A DNA stretch of 51,902 nucleotides from positions 1-51,902 of the forward strand of contig JAAWKZ010000005.1 of NCBI GenBank assembly GCA_022797635.1, written 5' to 3'. Origin of the DNA: Clostridia bacterium. GTDB taxonomy: Bacteria; Bacillota; Clostridia; TANB77; CAG-508. Below, one piece after another: positions 24,278-51,902 of the stretch (position 1 is its first letter; the number at the start of each line of letters is the position of its first letter). The notes below the pieces were generated by a model. That model was not told where the DNA came from, did not search any database, and worked only from the letters and a program-made list of their open reading frames with translations. Both the position numbers and the translations under genes were made by a program.

Positions 24278-25393
24278 TTAAAAATTTAATTTGTCATAAA
24301 CATATCTGTCCATTTTCTTAATAACTTTATAACTATTTCCCCTTTTCATATGGCCTCTCCAACTATAATAGGAATTCCATACTTGCTCTTTTGTCATTTT
24401 TCCTTCTTCTATCCACCTTTTAAAAGTTTTTATCTTTTTTCTCATTCTGGGAGTTGCATCTCTATTCATTTTCCTAATTACTTTTCCTGTTTGGGTACAA
24501 AAGAATTTTGTTTTCAAAAATTTAAAACCAGTAGCAAACTTTTGTATTTTAGTTTTCTTTTCATTTAGCATCAATCCTAGTTCAGCAACTTTCACTTTTA
24601 TTTTAGCTAATGTTTCTTTTGCTTCTTCTAAAGTTGCCGTAAAAAAGTAAAAATCATCCACATATCTTGCATAACATTTCACTCTTAACGTATCTTTGAT
24701 ATAATGGTCTAAGGGGGTTACAGCAATATTGGTATAAATCTGGGATGTATGGGCCCCAAGTCCAAAACTAGTATCACCATATAATTCCATACATAAATTA
24801 GCAACATGTCTAATCTTTTCATCATAAATACGTTTTTGGTGTTCTTTGTATACTACATAATGTGGTGCAGAATTGAAAAAGTCTTTAAAATCACAAGTAA
24901 CAATATAGCCATTTAAGCCATATTTTCTAAAGTGTCTTTGCATATGGCAATTCACTCTATCTAAGGTATGATCCATTCCTTTTCCTACTCTATTTGCTGC
25001 ATTATCATAAATAAATGTATTATCATAAATAGGAACAATTACATGGTCACATAAATCACGCTGAATAATTCTCTCACTTAACTTTTGTGCTTGAATTTTT
25101 CTTCTTTTTCCTCTTTCACAAACATAGAAAATATAGGGCTTTGAAAGCTTTAATTTATCTGTTTGTAAAGTTTCATAAATTTTATAAGTGGTAGAAATTC
25201 TTTTTTTAGCATAATTCTGTGTAGAAGCCTTCCATAATACATTTCTCATGCATTTTGTGCCAGCTTGATATAGATTTTCATAAGAAAATACTTCTTCAAA
25301 ACTACCACATGCTTCACTTTTCTTTCTTCTTTTTTCTTCCCTCATAGCTTTTCTTCTTTGGTATCTTAGTTCATGTCTTTCTTCACTTGTCAT
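24278..25393 (-). CDS. DGR reverse transcriptase
   Basis: GKRRKI, ERIIQR, DFKDFF, GAHTSQ (DGR-type SQ), LDHYIK, RYVDD and LNEKKT motifs; 371 aa, no maturase/HNH extension. Confidence 0.93.
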   Translation of the reverse strand: MTSEERHELRYQRRKAMREEKRRKKSEACGSFEEVFSYENLYQAGTKCMRNVLWKASTQNYAKKRISTTYKIYETLQTDKLKLSKPYIFYVCERGKRRKIQAQKLSERIIQRDLCDHVIVPIYDNTFIYDNAANRVGKGMDHTLDRVNCHMQRHFRKYGLNGYIVTCDFKDFFNSAPHYVVYKEHQKRIYDEKIRHVANLCMELYGDTSFGLGAHTSQIYTNIAVTPLDHYIKDTLRVKCYARYVDDFYFFTATLEEAKETLAKIKVKVAELGLMLNEKKTKIQKFATGFKFLKTKFFCTQTGKVIRKMNRDATPRMRKKIKTFKRWIEEGKMTKEQVWNSYYSWRGHMKRGNSYKVIKKMDRYVYDKLNF

Positions 25394-25403
25394 TTGTATG
25401 TTT

Positions 25404-25770
25404 AACCTCCGTACATTATAATTGCGAAGTAGAACTGACTATGAAATTGACACACTATAAAAATATGTCAACCATGCAAGCAGCGTCCAGTCATCTACAT
25501 CAAAGGTTCTTTTTGGTTTGTAATTACCACAAACTCAGGAACAAATTTCCCTTTCACAAAAGTTTTGATTCACTTTTTACAGTTACTATGTCTTACTTAT
25601 ATCTTGTGAAATCCAGGCGCAACGCCACCAGTGTTGCTCGCGTTGTTATTGTTGTTAGTGTTACCGTTGCTGTTGACATTGCAGAAGTTGTTGCTGTTGT
25701 TGTAATTAGGTGAACGAAGCCACCACCAGTTCGTACTGCCTGACAACGTAATTATCGAAATTTGACCTAT
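25404..25770 (-). ncRNA. DGR template cassette 7 (TR7 25609-25743)
   Basis: TR reads SGSTNWWWLRSPNYNNSNNFCNVNSNGNTNNNNNASNTGGVAPGF; spacer end contains the RT Shine-Dalgarno. Confidence 0.88.
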
Positions 25771-25853
25771 ACTTCCTTATATTTTTCTTAATAACCTTGA
25801 TTACAGAATTTTATTTTTTCCTAATTAAACACATAATTGACATATTAATTTTT

Positions 25854-26217
25854 AACCTTTGTACATATTTAATGCAAAGCAGAACTGGCTATGAAATTGA
25901 CATTCACTAAGAACTTATCAACCATGCAAATAGCGTCCAGCCATCTACATCAAAGGTTCTTTTCGGTTTGTGGTAACCACAAACTCAGGAACAGATCTCC
26001 CTTTCACAAAAGTTTTGCTTCACTTTTTACAGTTACTATGTCTCACTTATATCTTGTGAAATCCAGGCGCAACGCCATTGTTATTGCTCGCGTTGTTCCA
26101 GTCTGAAGCACCGTTGTTGTTGACATTGCAGAAGTTGCTGCTGTTGTTGTAATTAGGTGAACGAAGCCACCACCAGTTCGTACTGCCTGACAACGTAATT
26201 ATCGAGATTTGACCTAT
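25854..26217 (-). ncRNA. DGR template cassette 6 (TR6 26059-26190, one codon shorter)
   Basis: SGSTNWWWLRSPNYNNSSNFCNVNNNGASDWNNASNNNGVAPGF plus conserved leader and spacer. Confidence 0.88.
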
Positions 26218-26278
26218 ATTGAAATTTTATACTATTTTGTTATAACTTTAATTTTTTATTTAACTTATTTATTTTTCA

Positions 26279-26637
26279 AACCTTTGTACACCATTTATAG
26301 TAGAACTGACTATGAAATTGACATATAAAAAATATGTCAACCATGCAAGCAGCGTCCAGTCATCTACATCAAAGGTTCTTTTCAGTTTATATTTACTATA
26401 AACTTAGGAACAAATCTCCCTTTCACAAAAGTTTTGCTTCACCTTTTATTGGTTACTATGTCTTACTTATATCTTGTGAAATCCAGGCGCAACGCCATTG
26501 CTGTTGCTCGCGTTGTTATTGTTGCTGTTGCCGTTGCTGTCGATATTGCAGAAGTTGTTGCTGTTGTTGTAATTAGGTGAACGAAGCCACCACCAGTTCG
26601 TACTGCCTGACAACGTAATTATCGAGATTTGACCTAT
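26279..26637 (-). ncRNA. DGR template cassette 5 (TR5 26479-26610, one codon shorter)
   Basis: SGSTNWWWLRSPNYNNSNNFCNIDSNGNSNNNNASNSNGVAPGF. Confidence 0.88.
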
Positions 26638-26747
26638 ATTTCTTTAAAATCTCACTGTTTCTAGTCTCATACTGTCTTTCGATACTACTCATTATAAAAC
26701 TTTTCTATTTCCTTACTTAACATACATTTATTGGTATATTAATTTTC

Positions 26748-27115
26748 AACCTTTGTACATACTTAATGCAAAGCAGAACTGGCTATGAAATTGACATTCA
26801 CTAAGAACTTATCAACCATGCAAGCAGCGTCCAGCCATCTACATCAAAGGTTCTTTTCGGTTTGTATTTACTACAAACTCAGGAACAAATTTCCCTTTCA
26901 CAAAAGTTTTGATTCACCTTTTATTGGTTACTATGTCTTACTTATATCTTGTGAAATCCAGGCGCAACGCCATTGTTGTTGCTCGCGTTGTTCCAGTTGT
27001 CTGTGTTGCCGTTGCTGTTGACATTGCAGAAGTTGCTGCTGTTGTTGTAATTAGGTGAACGAAGCCACCAGTTGACCGTACTGCCTGACAACGTAATTAT
27101 CGAAATTTGACCTAT
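26748..27115 (-). ncRNA. DGR template cassette 4 (TR4 26954-27088)
   Basis: SGSTVNWWLRSPNYNNSSNFCNVNSNGNTDNWNNASNNNGVAPGF. Confidence 0.88.
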
Positions 27116-27200
27116 TCTATACATGTTCTAATTCTCTATAAACTTTAAAATAATATTTCATTTTATCCTATGCTTGACACATACTGATACTTTAATTTTT

Positions 27201-27560
27201 AACCCTTGTACACTATTTACAGTAGAACTGACTATGAAATTGACATAAAAAATATGCCAACCATGCAAGCAGCGTCCAGTCATCTACATCAAAGGTTCTT
27301 TTTGGTTTGTAATTTCTACAAACTCAGGAACAAATTTCCCTTTCACAAAAGTTTTGCTTCACCTTTTATTGGTTACTATGTCTTACTTATATCTTGTGAA
27401 ATCCAGGCGCAACGCCATTGTTGTTGCTCGCGTTGTTGCTGTTGTTAGTGTTACCGTTGTTGTTGACATTGCAGAAGTAGTTGCTGCCGTCGTAACCAGG
27501 TGAACGAAGCCACCACCAGTTCGTACTGCCTGACAACGTAATTATTAAAATTTGACCTAT
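27201..27560 (-). ncRNA. DGR template cassette 3 (TR3 27399-27533)
   Basis: SGSTNWWWLRSPGYDGSNYFCNVNNNGNTNNSNNASNNNGVAPGF. Confidence 0.88.
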
Positions 27561-27656
27561 ACTATTTTATATTTTTAAAACCTTAATGATAGAATTTTAC
27601 TTTATTTCCTTACTTAACATATATTGACATATTATTGAATATTAATATCTTCTTTT

Positions 27657-28010
27657 AACCTCTGTACGAAGTAGAACTGACTATGAAATTGACACATAAA
27701 AATATGTCAACCATGTAAACAGCGTCCAGCCATCTACATCAAAGGTTCTTTTTGGTTCGTAATTTCTACAAACTCAGGAACAAATTTCCCTTTCACAAAA
27801 GTTTTACTTCACCTTTTATAGGTTACTATGTCTTACTTATATCTTGTGAAATCCAGGCGCAGCGCCACTATGGTTGCTCGCACCGTCCGCGTTATCCGTG
27901 TCACCACTGCTGCCGACATAACAGAAGTAGTATCTGTCGCTGTAATAAGGTGAACGAAGCCACCACCAGAGCGTACTGCCTGACAACGCAATTATCAAAA
28001 TTTGACCTAT
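27657..28010 (-). ncRNA. DGR template cassette 2 (adenine-poor, VR-like core 27849-27983)
   Basis: SGSTLWWWLRSPYYSDRYYFCYVGSSGDTDNADGASNHSGAAPGF in intact leader/spacer flanks. Confidence 0.8.
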
Positions 28011-28107
28011 TCTATTTTATATTTTTAAAACCTTAATGATAGAATTTTACTTTATTTCCTTATTTAACATATATTGACATATTATTGAATATTAATATCT
28101 TAATTTT

Positions 28108-28465
28108 AACCTTTGTACTTTTTATAATAGAACTGGCTATGAAATTGACACATAAGATATGTCAACCATGCAAACAGCGTCCAGCCATCTACATCAAAGG
28201 TTCTTTTTGGTTCGTAATTTCTACAAACTCAGGAACAAATTTCCCTTTCACAAAAGTTTTGATTCACCTTTTATTGGTTACTATGTCTTACTTATATTTT
28301 GTGAAATCCAGGCGCAACACCATTGTTGTTGCTCGCGTTGTTGGCATTGTCTGTGTTGCCGCTGCTATTGACATTGCAGAAGTTGTTGCTGTTGTGGTAA
28401 TAAGGTGAACGAAGCCACCACCAGTGCGTACTGCCTGACAACGTAATTATCGAAATTTGACCTAT
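28108..28465 (-). ncRNA. DGR template cassette 1 (TR1 28304-28438), cognate template of the adjacent VR
   Basis: SGSTHWWWLRSPYYHNSNNFCNVNSSGNTDNANNASNNNGVAPGF; 12 of 13 mismatches to VR are at TR adenines. Confidence 0.92.
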
Positions 28466-28887
28466 AGTGTTTTAAATCTTTCAGCATCTGATTTCATGAT
28501 ACTTTTTAAAAGTCTCTGTTCTTCTGACAAAAGTCTTCCCCATTCCTGAAAAGCATACTCTTTCCATTCTTTATTTTCTTCTGGGTTCAGTTCTAATCTT
28601 GACTTCAATTCTGTCAATGGCAATTCCATATTTTCACAAGCAGCTAATGCTTGTTGAAAATGCATTTTACGATTTTGCGCATCTATTTTATTTTCTGGAA
28701 CAATATTATTGGCGATATTAGCCTCATAATATACTTTTCTTGCCAAACTACAAATATCTTTTGTCAAAAAGAATGTTAATCTTTTTGGAGATTTCAAGCA
28801 ATATGTCAAAGTATGCGCTGACAATTTCCTTGCATTCTCCAAAAATAAAGTTTTACTTTCATTTCTTTTACTTACATATACTGACAT
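28462..28887 (-). CDS. avd: DGR accessory variability determinant (Avd-like four-helix bundle)
   Basis: 141 aa, basic and helical, MSV..SKR.ES start; canonical position between target and TR; assignment largely positional. Confidence 0.8.
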   Translation of the reverse strand: MSVYVSKRNESKTLFLENARKLSAHTLTYCLKSPKRLTFFLTKDICSLARKVYYEANIANNIVPENKIDAQNRKMHFQQALAACENMELPLTELKSRLELNPEENKEWKEYAFQEWGRLLSEEQRLLKSIMKSDAERFKTL

Positions 28888-28912
28888 AATTGCTCTCCCT
28901 TTTATATAATTT

Positions 28913-28934
28913 TGTCCCTCCTTTCGGAGGGACA
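28913..28934 (-). promoter_or_regulatory. Candidate DGR target-recognition hairpin downstream of VR
   Basis: Perfect 9-bp stem tgtccctcc/ggagggaca with a GAAA loop on the minus strand, 75 nt after the target stop. Confidence 0.65.
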
Positions 28935-29009
28935 GATTTTTTCACCGTTTCTGGCTCATACCTCTATTTTGTTCTCTCTTCGCTCGTTGTTCGTGTCAAG
29001 GGCCAGATC

Positions 29010-31829
29010 CTAGATGCAAAAGCCAGGCGCAACACCAAAGTAGTTGCTCGCGTGGTTGGCATAGACTGTGTTGCCGCTGCTATAGACATAGCAGAAGTAG
29101 CTGCTGTTGTGGTAATAAGGCGAACGAAGCCACCACCAGTACGTACTGCCTGAGGCATTGTACTTTTGACGTCCTGTGCTCGAACTGTTCCATGCGTCTG
29201 TTACTCCTTGGTAATATTTATACTGTGGTCCTTCTGATGTGATTGCATAGCCGTATGTTCCACTTCCATTATATCCGTTATTTACTACCTCGCTTGCTGC
29301 TAATAACCATAAGTAATCATTACATGTTGCTACACTACTTGCACTATTATATGTTCCAATGTACTTCTTCTTTACTTGTTTGATATATGCTTTATTACTT
29401 AGCTTGTCTTTTCCTTCTGCTCCATTTAAAAATGTTCTCATTGCTGTATTTGCCCAGCCTCCACTGTTTGTATTACTACTGTTCATTTGCTTATATGTGT
29501 TTCCTGTCATGAAATCTAAGAATTCAAAACTTATACTTGCCTTACTATGGTTTCCTCCATACACTCCACTATTTACTAAATCATCGTGTTTAAATCCTAA
29601 TACTCTTACTCTTCTTTCATCTGTACCATATCTTACTTTATAGATATCTCCTACTTTTATGGTTTTACTTGTTCCATTTACTGTCACCGTTGCTTGTGTT
29701 GAACTGCTTGTAACACTACTATTTGCAATAGCTTTTGCCATCTCATTTAGTTCATCCCATGATGCTGCTATTTGATCCACTGCTTTTACTGTTACACTAC
29801 ATGTTGCTGATTTATTACTTCCATCCGCTGTCTTTACTGTGATTGTTGCAGTTCCTGCTTTTACACCTGTTACTAAACCTGTATTGCTTACTGTTGCTAC
29901 TCCTGTATTGCTTGAACTCCATGTTACTGATTTATTTTTTGTACCTGCTGGTGTTACTGTTGCTGTCAATTGTGTTGTCTTTCCTTCATCCATTGAAGCT
30001 GTTGTTGGGCTTACTGTTATTCCTGTTGCCAATTGATTTACAGTTACTGCTCCTGACACTGTTTCTACCTTATTTCCTGCATTATCTACTGTTAATACAT
30101 GTAAATAATATGTTCCTGCCGTTGTTGTTGACCATGTAATACTTTGACTATTGCTACTGAATGTTCCTCCTGTATAGCTACTTGCATTTGTTCCTAGCCT
30201 TGTAGCACTTGTTGTGAATACCCATTTACACTCTGCTGCTTTTGGTCCACTTTCATTATCTTGATGTGTTACTGTTGCTGTAATATTTGCTCCTGTATTT
30301 GCACTTGTTGTTAAATTACTAATTGTTGCCTTTGGATCTACTCCATCTCTTATTGCTACATATGCTGAATCTCCAGCGTTTGTTCCATCGTATAGTCTTG
30401 CATATACACTGTCTCCATGGTTCAACTCTGATACAGTTGTAGTCTTTGTTCCTGCTGGAACTGTTGTCCATGTTCCACTGATTCCATTCTTTTGCCATTG
30501 AATCTGTAAATTTGTTGAAGTAGTTAGTGTAATACTTGCTTTTCCACTTGACCATGTTGGACTACTTGCTATAATACTTCCTGTTGTTAAGTCCGAACCA
30601 GCTCCACCTACTGTTCCTGTTTTAATTCCAGTTGATGTTCCAGCTCCTTCATTCTCTGCTTTATCTTTTGTTGTTACTTTTACATCATAATTTGTATTTT
30701 GTGTTAATCCTGTAAAAGTATAGCTTGCATTTGTTCCTGTATATTTTGCTGTACCATAACTACTGTCTGATGACTTTTTAATGAAGAAACTATAGCTTGG
30801 ACTTGTTGCCATTCCCCATTCTGCATCTGTTGCTGATGCTGTTACTGTAATGCTATTTGTTGTTACACTTCCTTTAGCAACTGATACAATTGGTGCTCCT
30901 CCATCTCTAATTTCTACTGTTGCTACATCACCTTCATTTCTTCCATCTGTTGCTCTTGCATAAACTGTGTCGTTATGATTTAAGTTACCAATTGGTCCAT
31001 TATATGGTTGCCATGTTCCATCAATTCCATTAACTTGATATTCCAATTTAAATCTTGATTCTGCATCTTTTAACATTAATTCTATACTTGCTTTTCCAGC
31101 TGACCAAGTAGTTATTCCTTTTTGTTGAATTGTTCCATATCTTAATTCACCTGTTAATTCACTAATAACTGTCTCACTTGTTCCTTTTTTATTTTTTACA
31201 ACTACTTTTATATCATATATTTTGTCTGGGTCTAAATTAGTAAAGTCTGCAGTTAAATCTGTTGTATTTTGTTTTCCTGCCAACTCATGATAAGTTACCT
31301 CATCTGACTTTTTATAGTAATAGCTTAACTTTCCCTCTTCTAATCTTCTTACTGTTACTGCTACTGAAATACTATCGCTTGATTTAGTAGTTACTGTAAT
31401 TGATCCTACTTTTGGTGGTAGTTTGTCACCTTGTACCACTTCTCCTACTGAAATTTCTCCATCAGGTGTCACAATAATTTCTACTACACATCCATCTGTT
31501 GTATCTACTATATATACATCATTTTCTCCATCTTTATCTGGTCCTGTTACATCTTTATCACTCTCAATAATTCCTGCATCAATTAATTTATCCCAAAATT
31601 CATCTAGTCCAACATCTGGATTAGTTTGTTTTTGCATCCACCAATCCATAAGAGCAATCTCTATTTTTTCTCTTGCTTGTGCTGTTTGTGTCTTTTCCTT
31701 AGCTGCTACAGCTTTTTGAAATATACTATTATCTCCCATAACATAGTTAATAGTTATACCTGCTAAAATAAGTAAAACTACAATTGTAACTACTAATGCT
31801 ATTAAAGTAATACCTTTGTTTCTTTTCAT
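29010..31829 (-). CDS. DGR target: pilin-leader surface protein with FN3-like repeats, Big_2 Ig domain and C-terminal WWLRSP (DUF6273/CLec-like) variable domain
   Basis: MKRNKG-ITLIALVVTIVVLLILAG leader; FTGLTQNTNYDVKV (FN3); VTWSSSNTGVATV (Big_2); VR at the 3' end. Confidence 0.92.
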   Translation of the reverse strand: MKRNKGITLIALVVTIVVLLILAGITINYVMGDNSIFQKAVAAKEKTQTAQAREKIEIALMDWWMQKQTNPDVGLDEFWDKLIDAGIIESDKDVTGPDKDGENDVYIVDTTDGCVVEIIVTPDGEISVGEVVQGDKLPPKVGSITVTTKSSDSISVAVTVRRLEEGKLSYYYKKSDEVTYHELAGKQNTTDLTADFTNLDPDKIYDIKVVVKNKKGTSETVISELTGELRYGTIQQKGITTWSAGKASIELMLKDAESRFKLEYQVNGIDGTWQPYNGPIGNLNHNDTVYARATDGRNEGDVATVEIRDGGAPIVSVAKGSVTTNSITVTASATDAEWGMATSPSYSFFIKKSSDSSYGTAKYTGTNASYTFTGLTQNTNYDVKVTTKDKAENEGAGTSTGIKTGTVGGAGSDLTTGSIIASSPTWSSGKASITLTTSTNLQIQWQKNGISGTWTTVPAGTKTTTVSELNHGDSVYARLYDGTNAGDSAYVAIRDGVDPKATISNLTTSANTGANITATVTHQDNESGPKAAECKWVFTTSATRLGTNASSYTGGTFSSNSQSITWSTTTAGTYYLHVLTVDNAGNKVETVSGAVTVNQLATGITVSPTTASMDEGKTTQLTATVTPAGTKNKSVTWSSSNTGVATVSNTGLVTGVKAGTATITVKTADGSNKSATCSVTVKAVDQIAASWDELNEMAKAIANSSVTSSSTQATVTVNGTSKTIKVGDIYKVRYGTDERRVRVLGFKHDDLVNSGVYGGNHSKASISFEFLDFMTGNTYKQMNSSNTNSGGWANTAMRTFLNGAEGKDKLSNKAYIKQVKKKYIGTYNSASSVATCNDYLWLLAASEVVNNGYNGSGTYGYAITSEGPQYKYYQGVTDAWNSSSTGRQKYNASGSTYWWWLRSPYYHNSSYFCYVYSSGNTVYANHASNYFGVAPGFCI
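29019..29153 (-). repeat. DGR variable repeat (VR)
   Basis: Colinear 135-nt match to TR1; encodes SGSTYWWWLRSPYYHNSSYFCYVYSSGNTVYANHASNYFGVAPGF. Confidence 0.93.
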
Positions 31830-50746: not shown

Positions 50747-51902
50747 TTAGATACAAAATCCTGGGGCTACAGCACTACTATATCCTGCACTATTATGATG
50801 ACCAACACTGCCACTAGCATTAACATTACAGAAGTCATTTCCACTACTGTAATAAGGCGAACGAAGCCACCAACCATATGCACTTCCTCCTGTCTTCTTT
50901 GTACGTTCACTACTTAATGAGTTCCAGCTCGCTGATATTCCTTGGTAATATTTATACTGGCCTCCCTCTGTTGTAATTGCATATGCATAATATCCACTTT
51001 GATATCCACTATTTACTATTTCGCTTGCTGCTAATAACCATAAATAATCGTTACATGTTGTTACACTACTTGCACTATTATATGTTGCAATATATCTTTT
51101 CTTTACTTGTTTAATATAAGCTTTATTACTTAGTTTTTCCTTTCCGTCTGTTCCATTTAAGAATGTTCTCATAGCGGTTGAACCCCAACCACCAGAATTT
51201 GTGTGACTACTATTCATGTTCTTTTGCGTTGAGCCTGTCATGAAATCCAAAAACTCAAAACTAATACTTGCTTTTGTATGGCTTCCTCCATATATTCCTG
51301 TATTTACTAAATCATCATGTTTGAAACCTAATACTCTTACTTGTCTTTCTTCCCCATTGTATTTTACTTTATAGATTCCACCTACACTTATTTCATAACG
51401 TTCTCCATTTGCTGTATATCCTGTTGCTTTTGTTGAACTACTGTTAATGCTACTATCTTTTGCTATTGCTGTCGCTATTCTGTTCATTGTTGCCCAGCTT
51501 GCATCATCTGATCCTATTGTAACTGGTGTTGGATCTTGTACTGTTATGCTACAGGTTGCCGACTTATTACTTCCATCTGCCGTCTTCGCTGTAATTGTTA
51601 CATTTCCTGCTTTTACTCCTGTTACTACACCACTAGAGTTTACTGTTGCTACTCCTGTATTGCTACTTGTCCATGTTACTCCTTTATTTGATGCATTACT
51701 TGGTGTTACTGTTGCAGTTAATTGCTTTGTTTTCCCTTTTTCTACAGTTGTAGGTGTTGGACTTACTGTTATTCCTGTTGCTAATTGTCTTACTGTTACT
51801 GCCCCTGATACTGTTTCTAATGCATTTCCTGCATTATCTACACTTAATACATGTAAATAGTAGGTTCCTGGTGAACTCGCATTTAAATTTATCGTTTGTC
51901 CA
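50747..51902 (-). CDS. Paralog of the DGR target protein, 3' part (starts beyond the right edge)
   Basis: Frame open to the window end: ...GTYYLHVLSVDNAGN..., Big_2 domain, VRVLGFKHDDL, WWLRSP...VAPGFCI; closely parallels 29010..31829. Confidence 0.9.
   Translation of the reverse strand, partial: GQTINLNASSPGTYYLHVLSVDNAGNALETVSGAVTVRQLATGITVSPTPTTVEKGKTKQLTATVTPSNASNKGVTWTSSNTGVATVNSSGVVTGVKAGNVTITAKTADGSNKSATCSITVQDPTPVTIGSDDASWATMNRIATAIAKDSSINSSSTKATGYTANGERYEISVGGIYKVKYNGEERQVRVLGFKHDDLVNTGIYGGSHTKASISFEFLDFMTGSTQKNMNSSHTNSGGWGSTAMRTFLNGTDGKEKLSNKAYIKQVKKRYIATYNSASSVTTCNDYLWLLAASEIVNSGYQSGYYAYAITTEGGQYKYYQGISASWNSLSSERTKKTGGSAYGWWLRSPYYSSGNDFCNVNASGSVGHHNSAGYSSAVAPGFCI

Follow-up and report, generated by a model that had tools for sequence, protein, structure and literature searches.

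Seven tandem template-RNA cassettes and a single reverse transcriptase in a chromosomal DGR of a Clostridia bacterium

DGRs are usually modelled with one template per enzyme. In the stretch of DNA analyzed here (51,902 nucleotides, denoted the window in the following), the region between the accessory gene and the reverse transcriptase (RT) gene of a chromosomal DGR harbors seven tandem units, every one of which comprises a 27-nt leader, a distinct in-frame template (TR) of 132 or 135 nt and a full-length Rfam RT-2 RNA. Taken as a whole, the observations are best explained by one RT that, together with the accessory protein, serves several dedicated templates, a reading we consider likely. The window is contig C31 of G000, a MAG-like, fragmented assembly of 1.02 Mb in 37 contigs (80% complete), in which most target genes are truncated by contig ends.

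Locus organization and target gene

According to the ORF list and the repeat search, the DGR is located on the minus strand in the order target gene, accessory gene, seven tandem units and DGR-type RT. The features outside the array are as follows.

29010–31829, minus strand: target gene, ORF, 939 aa
29019–29153, minus strand: VR, cognate to TR1, formed by the final 45 codons of the target
28911–28936, no strand assigned: GC-rich inverted repeat 83 nt downstream of the VR, 11 pairs (6 G-C), 4-nt loop
28462–28887, minus strand: accessory gene in the Avd position, ORF, 141 aa, family label by position
24278–25393, minus strand: reverse transcriptase, 371 aa, with LGAHTSQ (GxxxSQ) and YVDD motifs

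The target protein contains Big_2 (1.1e-19), a C-terminal DUF6273 (3.6e-16) and also fn3-like domains as judged by Pfam, and its N-terminus displays a weak prepilin-type N-terminal methylation motif (N_methyl, 0.0011, below cut-off). TR and VR have GGCGTTGCGCCTGG in common and diverge after it, which corresponds to the pattern of IMH versus IMH* following a GC-rich element. The inverted repeat downstream of the VR carries no U-tract on the strand of the target gene and is, from its position and structure, likely the DGR target-site hairpin; it recurs in the related locus L054 with two compensatory pairs and is present in the sister genome G063 also. Together, the IMH/IMH*-like ends and the downstream GC-rich inverted repeat point to a DGR.

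The RT is the sole RT match in G000 and is recognized by RVT_1 (Pfam, 6.8e-15) and by PHROG 1423, reverse transcriptase (4e-74), and its best NCBIfam matches are generic RT families below threshold. GxxxSQ is used as a criterion for DGR-type RTs in the available text of PMC12386605, and the presence of both GxxxSQ and YxDD suggests an RT of this type.

The accessory gene had been named avd in the first-pass annotation. Its place in the gene order agrees with this name, which is a positional label: the protein has no sequence or profile match in Pfam, NCBIfam or the PDB, and matches PHROG 30516 of unknown function (1e-08), with 55 homolog clusters. Its AlphaFold model is all-helical and of low confidence (pLDDT 54.5), too poor for a fold search.

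The seven cassettes

A repeat search returns eight in-register copies of 135 nt, namely the seven TRs and the VR at 29019–29153. The TRs are spaced by 447, 420, 478, 445, 450 and 455 nt (TRF period 450 nt), and the motif TAGGTCAAAT marks the unit starts at positions 28464, 28009, 27559, 27114, 26636, 26216 and 25769, with unit lengths of 455, 450, 445, 478, 420, 447 and 376 nt. Repeat search, TRF and RT-2 matches thus agree with the seven tandem units described in the first-pass annotation, whose spacing of 420–475 nt has to be extended to 420–478 nt, and the leader begins, as noticed there, at a copy of the accessory-gene stop, the first unit start overlapping the TAG stop of that gene.

28010–28464, minus strand: cassette 1; leader 28439–28464, TR1 28304–28438, RT-2 28088–28295 (100.7 bits), AT-rich linker
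27560–28009, minus strand: cassette 2; TR2 27849–27983 (adenine-poor: 27 A, 2 AAC codons), RT-2 27637–27840 (93.2 bits)
27115–27559, minus strand: cassette 3; TR3 27399–27533, RT-2 27181–27390 (106.5 bits)
26637–27114, minus strand: cassette 4; TR4 26954–27088, RT-2 26728–26945 (116.2 bits)
26217–26636, minus strand: cassette 5; TR5 26479–26610 (132 nt), RT-2 26259–26470 (105.3 bits)
25770–26216, minus strand: cassette 6; TR6 26059–26190 (132 nt), RT-2 25834–26050 (111.7 bits)
25394–25769, minus strand: cassette 7; TR7 25609–25743 (cognate: remote VR at G000:C28:18877–19011), RT-2 25384–25600 (117.8 bits)

The GGAGG ribosome-binding site of the RT gene sits in the 3′ helix strand of the cassette 7 RT-2. 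No two TRs are identical (11–34 pairwise differences), and the linkers differ between units. Five of the seven TRs are 135 nt long, and TR5 and TR6 reach 132 nt by two different one-codon deletions. Alignment and translation agree with the earlier description of seven different TRs whose lengths change by whole codons: none contains a stop in the target frame, and WWLRSP, FC and APGF are retained in all of them. All TRs and the cleaner VRs agree in their initial 12 nt, in the TGGTGGCTTCGTTCACCT block and in the GC-rich element at the 3′ end.

In the six A-rich TRs, 35–40 of the 39–43 adenines occupy codon positions 1 and 2, and each of these templates has 8–13 AAC codons; for TR2 the corresponding numbers are 23 of 27 and two. 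This adenine placement and the richness in AAC suggest DGR templates, and TR2 looks as if it had arisen from another TR by adenine mutagenesis.

Integrity of the assembled array

Metagenome assembly might have wrongly expanded a single or short array or merged strains. Such an origin is conceivable inasmuch as G000 is fragmented, no single read or contig covers the whole array, and one of the three sequencing runs considered here may be the source sample. Logan contigs from three DNA runs, each belonging to a different study, nevertheless contain six unit-specific junction pieces with 0–3 other letters, and an assembly artefact is for this reason an unlikely source of the array. The per-contig depths of the junction pieces, to be read as a rough guide, are near those of the RT piece (11–24 versus 14.6 in run X1, 56–80 versus 69.5 in run X2); no VR variation between samples emerged from the Logan contigs, which break at VR borders and lose rare variants. 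As the units moreover differ by 11–34 positions in their TRs and have distinct linkers, and as the related genome G065 independently contains at least two units, we regard wrong expansion or strain merging as highly improbable.

RT-2 and the architecture of the cassette RNA

The element described earlier as a spacer of about 200 nt is Rfam RT-2 (RF03077) in all seven units, covering model positions 1–222 of 222 with 93.2–117.8 bits at a gathering cut-off of 40; E-values of 1e-21 to 1e-28 rule out chance. Leader and RT-2 form a helix of 12 pairs, four of which covary, two of those within the window's own units. It directly adjoins a predicted 12-bp pairing between the TR 3′ end and RT-2, and the duplexes are followed by a stem-loop (alignment columns 252–270) and an A-run. 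Across the units, 12 pairs of the RNA structure are changed on both sides, versus 4.1 ± 1.5 in shuffled alignments (0 of 500 as high) and 1–4 in slid controls. The TR:RT-2 duplex is invariant, so that covariation lends no support to this pairing.

In BPP-1, according to the available text of 10.1101/2023.10.23.563531, an avd:Sp duplex termed the "cPRT stop" lies beside a TR:Sp duplex and is followed by a stem-loop and adenosines, and the core DGR RNA requires 20 nt of upstream avd (PMC6182149, available text). The cassettes, with their predicted TR:RT-2 duplex, appear to follow this cis-priming layout, and since the leader:RT-2 helix beside the TR:RT-2 duplex corresponds to the "cPRT stop" arrangement, each unit is by analogy predicted to be a self-contained DGR RNA. 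RT motif RNAs were introduced as located near RT genes and possibly belonging to retroelements, and the available text of that report goes no further (Weinberg 2017, PMC5737381). The seven spacers are full-length members of RT-2; different from the Rfam entry, as far as its description is available, is the placement as a DGR spacer RNA that pairs with the leader and the 3′ end of the TR, both outside the model. An orphan Rfam motif would thereby gain a role and outside pairing partners.

Within the array, a promoter scan gave only promoter-like matches of 9 of 12 positions, in the AT-rich linkers, and a terminator scan gave none between units. In Logan contigs of the metatranscriptomic run X15, the array and the accessory gene are matched by six identical pieces and the RT and target genes by none; DNA carry-over is possible, and uncovered parts are uninformative.

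Assignment of templates to variable regions

VR-like sequences were compared with the TRs for changes at adenine and at other sites. The adjacent VR differs from TR1 at 12 of 40 adenine sites and at one of 95 other sites (p=1e-6), and from the other six TRs by 7–25 non-A changes. A remote VR on contig C28 (18877–19011) differs from TR7 at 18 of 43 adenines and two of 92 other sites (p=7e-9), and from the next-best TR by six non-A changes and a 3-nt gap. These p-values are optimistic, as each Fisher test uses whichever of the seven templates fits best and the compared sequences are paralogous. The differences in both pairs thus fall at TR adenines, as would be expected of a DGR, and at least two TRs have a cognate VR of their own, with a single RT in the genome.

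G000 encodes 20 DUF6273 paralogs. Of 17 VR-like ends tested, ten diverge from a TR with an adenine bias (p<1e-3), namely those on C31, C28, C24, C33 (67061), C9, C19 (two), C16, C1 and C6 (13945); their GC content is 0.48–0.60 versus 0.38–0.49 in the remaining seven. Eight of these ten carry 7–21 non-A changes relative to their best TR and would be old, decayed, or served by templates absent here. Within G000, a clean VR is found for two of the seven TRs, TR1 and TR7. For TR2, TR3 and TR6 the assemblies compared yielded no clean VR, the best for TR3 having 12 and that for TR6 at least 12 non-A changes.

The sister genome G063 adds further pairs, as four of its nine VR-like sequences fit TR5, TR7 or TR4 with 1–5 non-A changes. 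The one TR in the G063 assembly is unrelated and is the best fit for none of the nine. Orthologous targets in G000 and G063 or G065 were considered for VR comparison and rejected, their flanks being just 66–90% identical and hence no clean orthologs.

Conceivably, TR1, nearest to the accessory gene, is the only template used today; cassettes 2–7 would then be remnants of tandem duplication, and the matches to TR7, TR5 and TR4 would date from earlier activity. The GC hairpin is found at the adjacent VR and at none of the other VRs, most adenine-biased VRs carry the many non-A changes mentioned above, TR2 is adenine-poor, and units can decay, as exemplified by the internally deleted TR in the RT-proximal unit of G065. 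Against this stand all seven RT-2 copies at 93–118 bits with helices kept through compensatory changes, TRs that are all in frame with indels of whole codons, and a C28 VR that is as clean with respect to TR7 as the adjacent VR is with respect to TR1. Exclusive use of TR1 is therefore improbable in our view.

Alternatively, the cDNA of any cassette could enter any VR with the shared ends, so that targets cycle through seven scaffolds. The elements common to all TRs and the cleaner VRs would permit this, the 5′ boundary in BPP-1 is fixed by homology alone according to the available text of PMC5758913, and the adjacent VR has 135 nt in G000 versus 132 nt in G063. However, a mosaic search found no VR that splits into clean segments from two TRs, and frequent cross-homing predicts that every competent VR be clean against some TR, which eight of the ten adenine-biased VRs are not. 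We consider such combinatorial switching distinctly improbable.

Dedication of templates to different paralogous targets, one of two options in the first-pass annotation, is favored by the TR1 and TR7 VRs in G000 and the TR5-, TR7- and TR4-type VRs in G063. The broader proposal of one RT/Avd pair drawing on a template library holds with regard to seven intact cassettes, a lone RT and these VRs, the Avd identity being positional.

Finally, the pilin-like N-terminus of the target and the converted appearance of TR2 would be in line with silent DNA cassettes used for RecA-type gene conversion in the style of pilin antigenic variation, without reverse transcription. This is hardly credible, as the TR/VR differences are adenine-specific and structured RNA and leader helix are kept in each cassette, which conversion at the DNA level would not need.

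Proposed model for one enzyme with several templates

In the reading with dedicated templates, an ancestral intergenic module between accessory gene and RT (leader, TR and RT-2) would have been amplified in tandem, partly as two-unit blocks, to give seven cassettes. Each would fold independently, with the leader paired to RT-2, the adjoining duplex of TR 3′ end and RT-2, and the TR forming a loop, as it does in the ribonucleoprotein of BPP-1. Every such RNA would be bound by the single RT together with the 141-aa protein; after self-priming, the enzyme would copy the TR, making errors at its adenines, and the cDNA would home into a VR with the shared GC-rich element at its end: from TR1 into the adjacent gene, from TR7 into the remote gene, and from TR5 and TR4 (with TR7) into genes known from the sister genome. 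The array, the RNA family, the covarying helices and the adenine-specific TR–VR pairs are observed; that every cassette yields cDNA, that the element is active today and the way in which a cDNA selects its VR are inferred. Since the TRs differ at non-adenine sites (fixed Trp, Gly-Tyr-Asp-Gly, Thr-Gly-Gly, loop length), a given template would maintain a scaffold particular to it among those of the 20 DUF6273 paralogs that it serves. This would provide a 1-Mb gut bacterium with a route to diversify a 20-member surface-protein family while subfamily-specific scaffolds are preserved.

More tentatively, and with clear doubt, a two-tier system may be envisaged in which duplication of cassettes, adenine-biased change and the rewriting of templates, as in TR2, let the template library evolve too. 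At least seven self-priming RNAs would be multiplexed by one RT among roughly 20 paralogous surface proteins, and occasional cross-homing would swap whole scaffolds between genes. Short-read assemblies would systematically hide such arrays, since the single TR of G063 accounts for none of its nine VRs.

Comparison with known DGRs

The architecture had been put forward as undescribed, which is too strong. According to the available text of a survey, at least two TRs occur in 55 of the 271 DGRs with multiple VRs, Stenotrophomonas SKA14 combines two TRs with six VRs, and DUF1566 genes are among the targets (PMC6642488); the Zeta crAss-like phages Lera and ct1yV3 have one RT and three TR–VR pairs (PMC12386605, available text). 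Among the main texts searched, none describes seven whole DGR-RNA cassettes arrayed in tandem. DGRs with two or three TRs being published, the novelty is a seven-unit whole-cassette variant, not a new kind.

The Bordetella phage BPP-1 DGR (mtd-avd-TR-brt) shares the gene order of target, accessory gene, TR, spacer RNA and RT, the C-terminal VR with adenine-specific TR/VR differences, the GC-rich element with diverging IMH/IMH*-like ends, the GC hairpin downstream of the VR and, as far as its RNA is described in the available text, the adjoining leader:spacer and TR-3′-end:spacer duplexes followed by stem-loop and adenosines. It is a phage element with one TR, whereas the present DGR is chromosomal, has seven complete cassettes, targets a DUF6273 protein, uses Rfam RT-2 as spacer and encodes an accessory protein with no detectable Avd signature.

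Lera and ct1yV3 likewise combine several TRs, each with its own VR, with one RT and accessory gene, and also show one clean pair and others with extra non-A changes; they differ in having three TRs, tail-fibre targets and a phage context, the comparison covering these three points. The survey's multi-TR DGRs resemble the present one in having more than one TR per RT and VRs in several paralogous (DUF1566) genes, but are automatic calls, and the main text neither describes whole cassettes in tandem nor gives an RNA structure or assigns targets to individual TRs. In Treponema denticola, one RT also diversifies many remote paralogous targets, C-type-lectin-like, across the chromosome, albeit with a single TR per genome for all of them (PMC4891356, PMC5758913, available text), whereas here the template is multiplied and diversified. 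The whole cis-acting RNA module (leader, TR and spacer) appears here as a portable cassette, of which seven copies share one RT and individual copies are probably assigned to separate paralogous genes. Surveys may underestimate TR copy number and TR–VR assignment where assemblies collapse or break arrays.

Distribution in relatives and wider surveys

TR copy number varies among relatives, with one unit beside RTs of 73% (L054) and 98% identity and at least two units in G065; L054 is a canonical single cassette with A-only TR/VR differences. Loci of close RT homologs number three in genomes, one in metagenomes and none in viral contigs. With an RT-2 HMM that is narrow, three of 151 relatives' genomes score above cut-off (G000 included, the set being re-scanned within a 51-genome genus), and among 150 class-level genomes G000 alone does so, next to one sub-threshold match. 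Of 80 listed viral loci with the 17-nt RT-2 core pattern, 54 are probably chance pattern matches; the other 26 match RT-2 by nhmmer, each in single copy.

Organization of the locus

All elements of the locus lie on the minus strand and are arranged as follows:

29010-31829, minus strand: target ORF, 939 aa
29019-29153, minus strand: variable region (VR) inside the target's 3' end, the eighth 135-nt copy of the repeat search
28911-28936: GC hairpin, without a U-tract on the gene's strand
28462-28887, minus strand: accessory ORF, 141 aa
27849-27983, minus strand: second template repeat, TR2
24278-25393, minus strand: reverse transcriptase (RT) ORF

The RT contains the motifs LGAHTSQ and YVDD, and GxxxSQ is quoted as a hallmark of diversity-generating retroelements (DGRs) (PMC12386605). 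Because these motifs occur together with adenine-specific TR/VR pairs, a GC-rich element common to TR and VR after which the ends diverge, and the GC hairpin, the locus is, on sequence grounds, a DGR. The hairpin is kept, via two compensatory pairs, in the related metagenome contig L054. The accessory protein could not be established as Avd by family, PHROG and PDB profile searches or by an AlphaFold model. It has 55 homolog clusters (42-98% identity) in public assemblies; 50 of these have no contig longer than 8.6 kb, which may reflect assembly breaks around the locus or simply short metagenome contigs.

Between accessory gene and RT the repeat search depicts seven in-register 135-nt copies, with an array period of 450 nt (TRF). 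Each unit is opened by TAGGTCAAAT, at 28464, 28009, 27559, 27114, 26636, 26216 and 25769, giving unit lengths of 455, 450, 445, 478, 420, 447 and 376 nt, respectively; the first of these starts and the stop codon of the accessory gene overlap. The description of seven leader-TR-spacer units in the first-pass annotation is thus correct except for the largest spacing, given as 475 nt and measured as 478 nt.

Templates and their targets

TR1 to TR7, counted from the accessory gene towards the RT, are all distinct (11-34 pairwise differences). None has a stop codon in the target frame, all seven retain WWLRSP, FC and APGF, and the sole indels among them are one-codon deletions, a different one in TR5 than in TR6, so that the properties initially ascribed to the TRs, including whole-codon length differences, are all confirmed. 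Six TRs have 39-43 adenines each, 35-40 of which fall in codon positions 1-2; for TR2 the figure is 23 of 27. TR2 is adenine-poor, with 27 adenines and 2 AAC codons versus 39-43 and 8-13 in each of the other six. Judged from their sequences, the seven TRs behave as templates.

TRs and VRs were compared over the core 132/135 nt. TR1 differs from the adjacent VR at 12/40 A sites and 1/95 non-A sites, the other six TRs by 7-25 non-A changes. A remote VR of the same genome (G000), at 18877-19011 of contig C28, differs from TR7 at 18/43 A sites and 2/92 non-A sites and contains TR7's fixed Thr-Gly-Gly; the second-best TR shows 6 non-A changes and a 3-nt gap. Furthermore, TR3's fixed Gly-Tyr-Asp-Gly is present in another G000 VR, C33:67061. 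Among the VR-like ends of G000 and its sister genome G063, no clean target was found for TR2, TR3 and TR6. Assignment of VRs by adenine mismatch, with each TR tested against the genome, gave clean pairs in G000 for TR1 and TR7 only. The proposal that one RT draws on a library of templates is partly supported: the locus is a multi-template DGR, and of the two uses first proposed, dedicated templates and a hypothetical scaffold switching, the sequence evidence favours dedicated templates.

Besides the seven TRs, the G000 assembly (1,024,865 bases, 37 contigs, 80% complete) harbors 20 gene-like DUF6273 matches, of which 17 were compared with the TRs at their 3' ends (C4, C35 and C27 gave no full-length blastn alignment). 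Adenine-biased divergence from the best TR is found in 10 of the 17 (Fisher p<1e-3, an optimistic value since the best of seven templates was chosen and the sequences are paralogs). Only the adjacent and the C28 VR are clean; the other eight show 7-21 non-A changes. The GC content of the ten is 0.48-0.60, versus 0.38-0.49 in the other seven.

The window contains a further DUF6273 C-terminal domain (50747-51229, minus strand), whose 3' end is without adenine bias toward any TR (17/40 A versus 34/95 non-A changes) and which is therefore a non-diversified paralog. About a dozen paralogs lie at most 1 kb from a contig end (C24, C28, C19, C9, C16, C1, C13, C27, C35, C17, C4); the assembly thus breaks at this gene family, with most targets truncated. 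Downstream of the VRs in C28, C24, C9, C16 and C6:13945 a 3' flank of about 70 nt is conserved (TCTAGGTCTGAAC..., then an A/T-rich hairpin), which is unlike the adjacent target's flank and lacks the GC-rich GAAA hairpin.

Predicted RNA structure of the units

All seven unit spacers match the Rfam family RT-2 (RF03077) over the whole model with 93.2-117.8 bits (cut-off 40). Of the motifs RT-1 to RT-19, Weinberg et al. state no more than that they lie near RT genes and are possibly parts of retroelements (PMC5737381). Nine whole units, namely the seven of the window, one of G063 and one of L054, were folded with RNAalifold. In the predicted structure the 27-nt leader forms a 12-bp helix with a segment of RT-2, and the TR 3' end forms a 12-bp duplex with the segment directly 5' of it on the same RT-2 strand; next come a stem-loop and an A-run. 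Paired cells amount to 97.8%. Pairs changed on both sides number 12, versus 4.1 +/- 1.5 in shuffles (0/500 reach 12) and 1-4 in slid controls, counts that refer to a structure derived from the same small set of nine related sequences. Four covarying pairs fall in the leader helix, one being U-A to C-G in cassettes 5 and 6, while the TR:RT-2 duplex is invariant and covariation hence uninformative for it.

This layout, with leader:RT-2 beside TR-3'-end:RT-2, matches that of the RNP of Bordetella phage BPP-1 as determined by cryo-EM; of 278 DGRs with Avd homologs, 207 are reported to have similar predicted elements (bioRxiv 10.1101/2023.10.23.563531). It also fits the requirement of the core BPP-1 DGR RNA for 20 nt of avd upstream of the TR and 140 nt of spacer (PMC6182149). 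The leader is copied with every unit because it would provide one strand of a required helix. By this predicted fold and the BPP-1 analogy, each of the seven units would be a complete DGR RNA.

In cassette 7 the 3' strand of the closing RT-2 helix (25394-25410) is ACGGAGGUU, which forms the RT's ribosome-binding site via G-U pairs; in cassettes 1-6 this strand is ACAAAGGUU or a close variant. Folding of RT-2 in cassette 7 would sequester that ribosome-binding site.

The array in sequencing runs of three studies and in relatives

Pieces of unit-specific junctions, differing from the window in 0-3 letters, are found in Logan contigs of three DNA sequencing runs from three studies (X1, X2, X3), one of which is possibly the source sample. 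The pieces 26191-26357, 26611-26792, 27086-27287 and 28437-29037 are common to all three, and 25742-25898 (X2), 27832-28101 (X1) and 27408-27651 (X3) occur in single runs; no piece in these contigs spans the whole array. As a rough guide only, per-contig depth of junction pieces is near that of the RT piece, at 11-24 in X1 (RT piece 14.6) and 56-80 in X2 (RT piece 69.5).

Three of 151 related genomes, one of them G000, carry RT-2 above the cut-off (the genus comprises 51 genomes); in a class sample of 150 genomes G000 alone does, and one match is sub-threshold. In G063 the same locus adjoins aspS, with an RT 98% identical and exactly one unit between accessory gene and RT. A second sister genome, G065, has at least two units on a contig that starts inside the array; its RT-proximal unit (L042/L052, 240-320) has lost about 88 nt within the TR with RT-2 intact, a sequence indication that cassettes can decay. 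L054 (RT identity 73%) shows the canonical order of target, GC hairpin, accessory gene, one TR, RT-2 and RT, with A-only TR/VR differences. These relatives thus show one unit or, in G065, at least two, and the array is an element with a single cassette that was expanded in this lineage. Among 80 viral loci listed for a 17-nt pattern, 26 carry one copy each of an RT-2-like RNA; the other 54 are probably chance matches.

The sole assembled TR of G063 (L043/L051) is an eighth type, with 8-18 non-A differences from the seven of G000. It is the best fit for none of nine G063 VR-like sequences (10-31 non-A changes), whereas G000 templates fit four: L059 to TR5 (14/43 A, 1/89 non-A), L061 to TR7 (21/43, 3/92), L066 to TR5 (17/43, 4/89) and L064 to TR4 (17/43, 5/92). 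L070, L075 and L071, excluded by the pattern/length filter, have no fewer than 12 non-A changes to any of the TRs. By the four fits, TR5-, TR7- and TR4-type templates have been used in this clade, and signatures of TRs other than TR1 are thus present, TR7 in G000 and these types in G063. The array of G063 probably collapsed in assembly or was lost. None of eight VR-like sequences of G065 has 5 or fewer non-A changes; the best fit of its VR L080 is G063's TR, with 12.

Relation to described DGRs

Although no description of the architecture was known at first, several TRs in one DGR are already on record in print: Yan et al. report a single TR in 216 of 271 multi-VR DGRs and more in the other 55, one example having two TRs and six VRs (PMC6642488). 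Passages retrieved by term search from the main texts of Wu 2018 and Roux 2021 contain no discussion of multi-TR cassettes, and full-text literature searches, covering the main texts of the surveys, found neither a tandem array of whole TR-plus-spacer cassettes nor a seven-TR DGR. The novelty is one of degree and architecture, not of kind.

History of the array

TRs and RT-2 variants group alike (cassettes 1+2, 4+6 and 3+5+7), and the closest TR pairs include TR5/TR7 (11 differences) and TR4/TR6 (15), a pattern suggestive of duplication of whole cassettes, in one case of a two-unit block. There is an excess of variable TR columns at consensus adenines (25/41 versus 20/88, p=3e-5), to which TR2 contributes much. 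As a product of any other TR, TR2 would require 15-20 A-site and 10-14 non-A changes, versus 2-4 and 26-29 in the reverse direction. By this asymmetry TR2 itself looks adenine-mutagenized, or converted from a VR.
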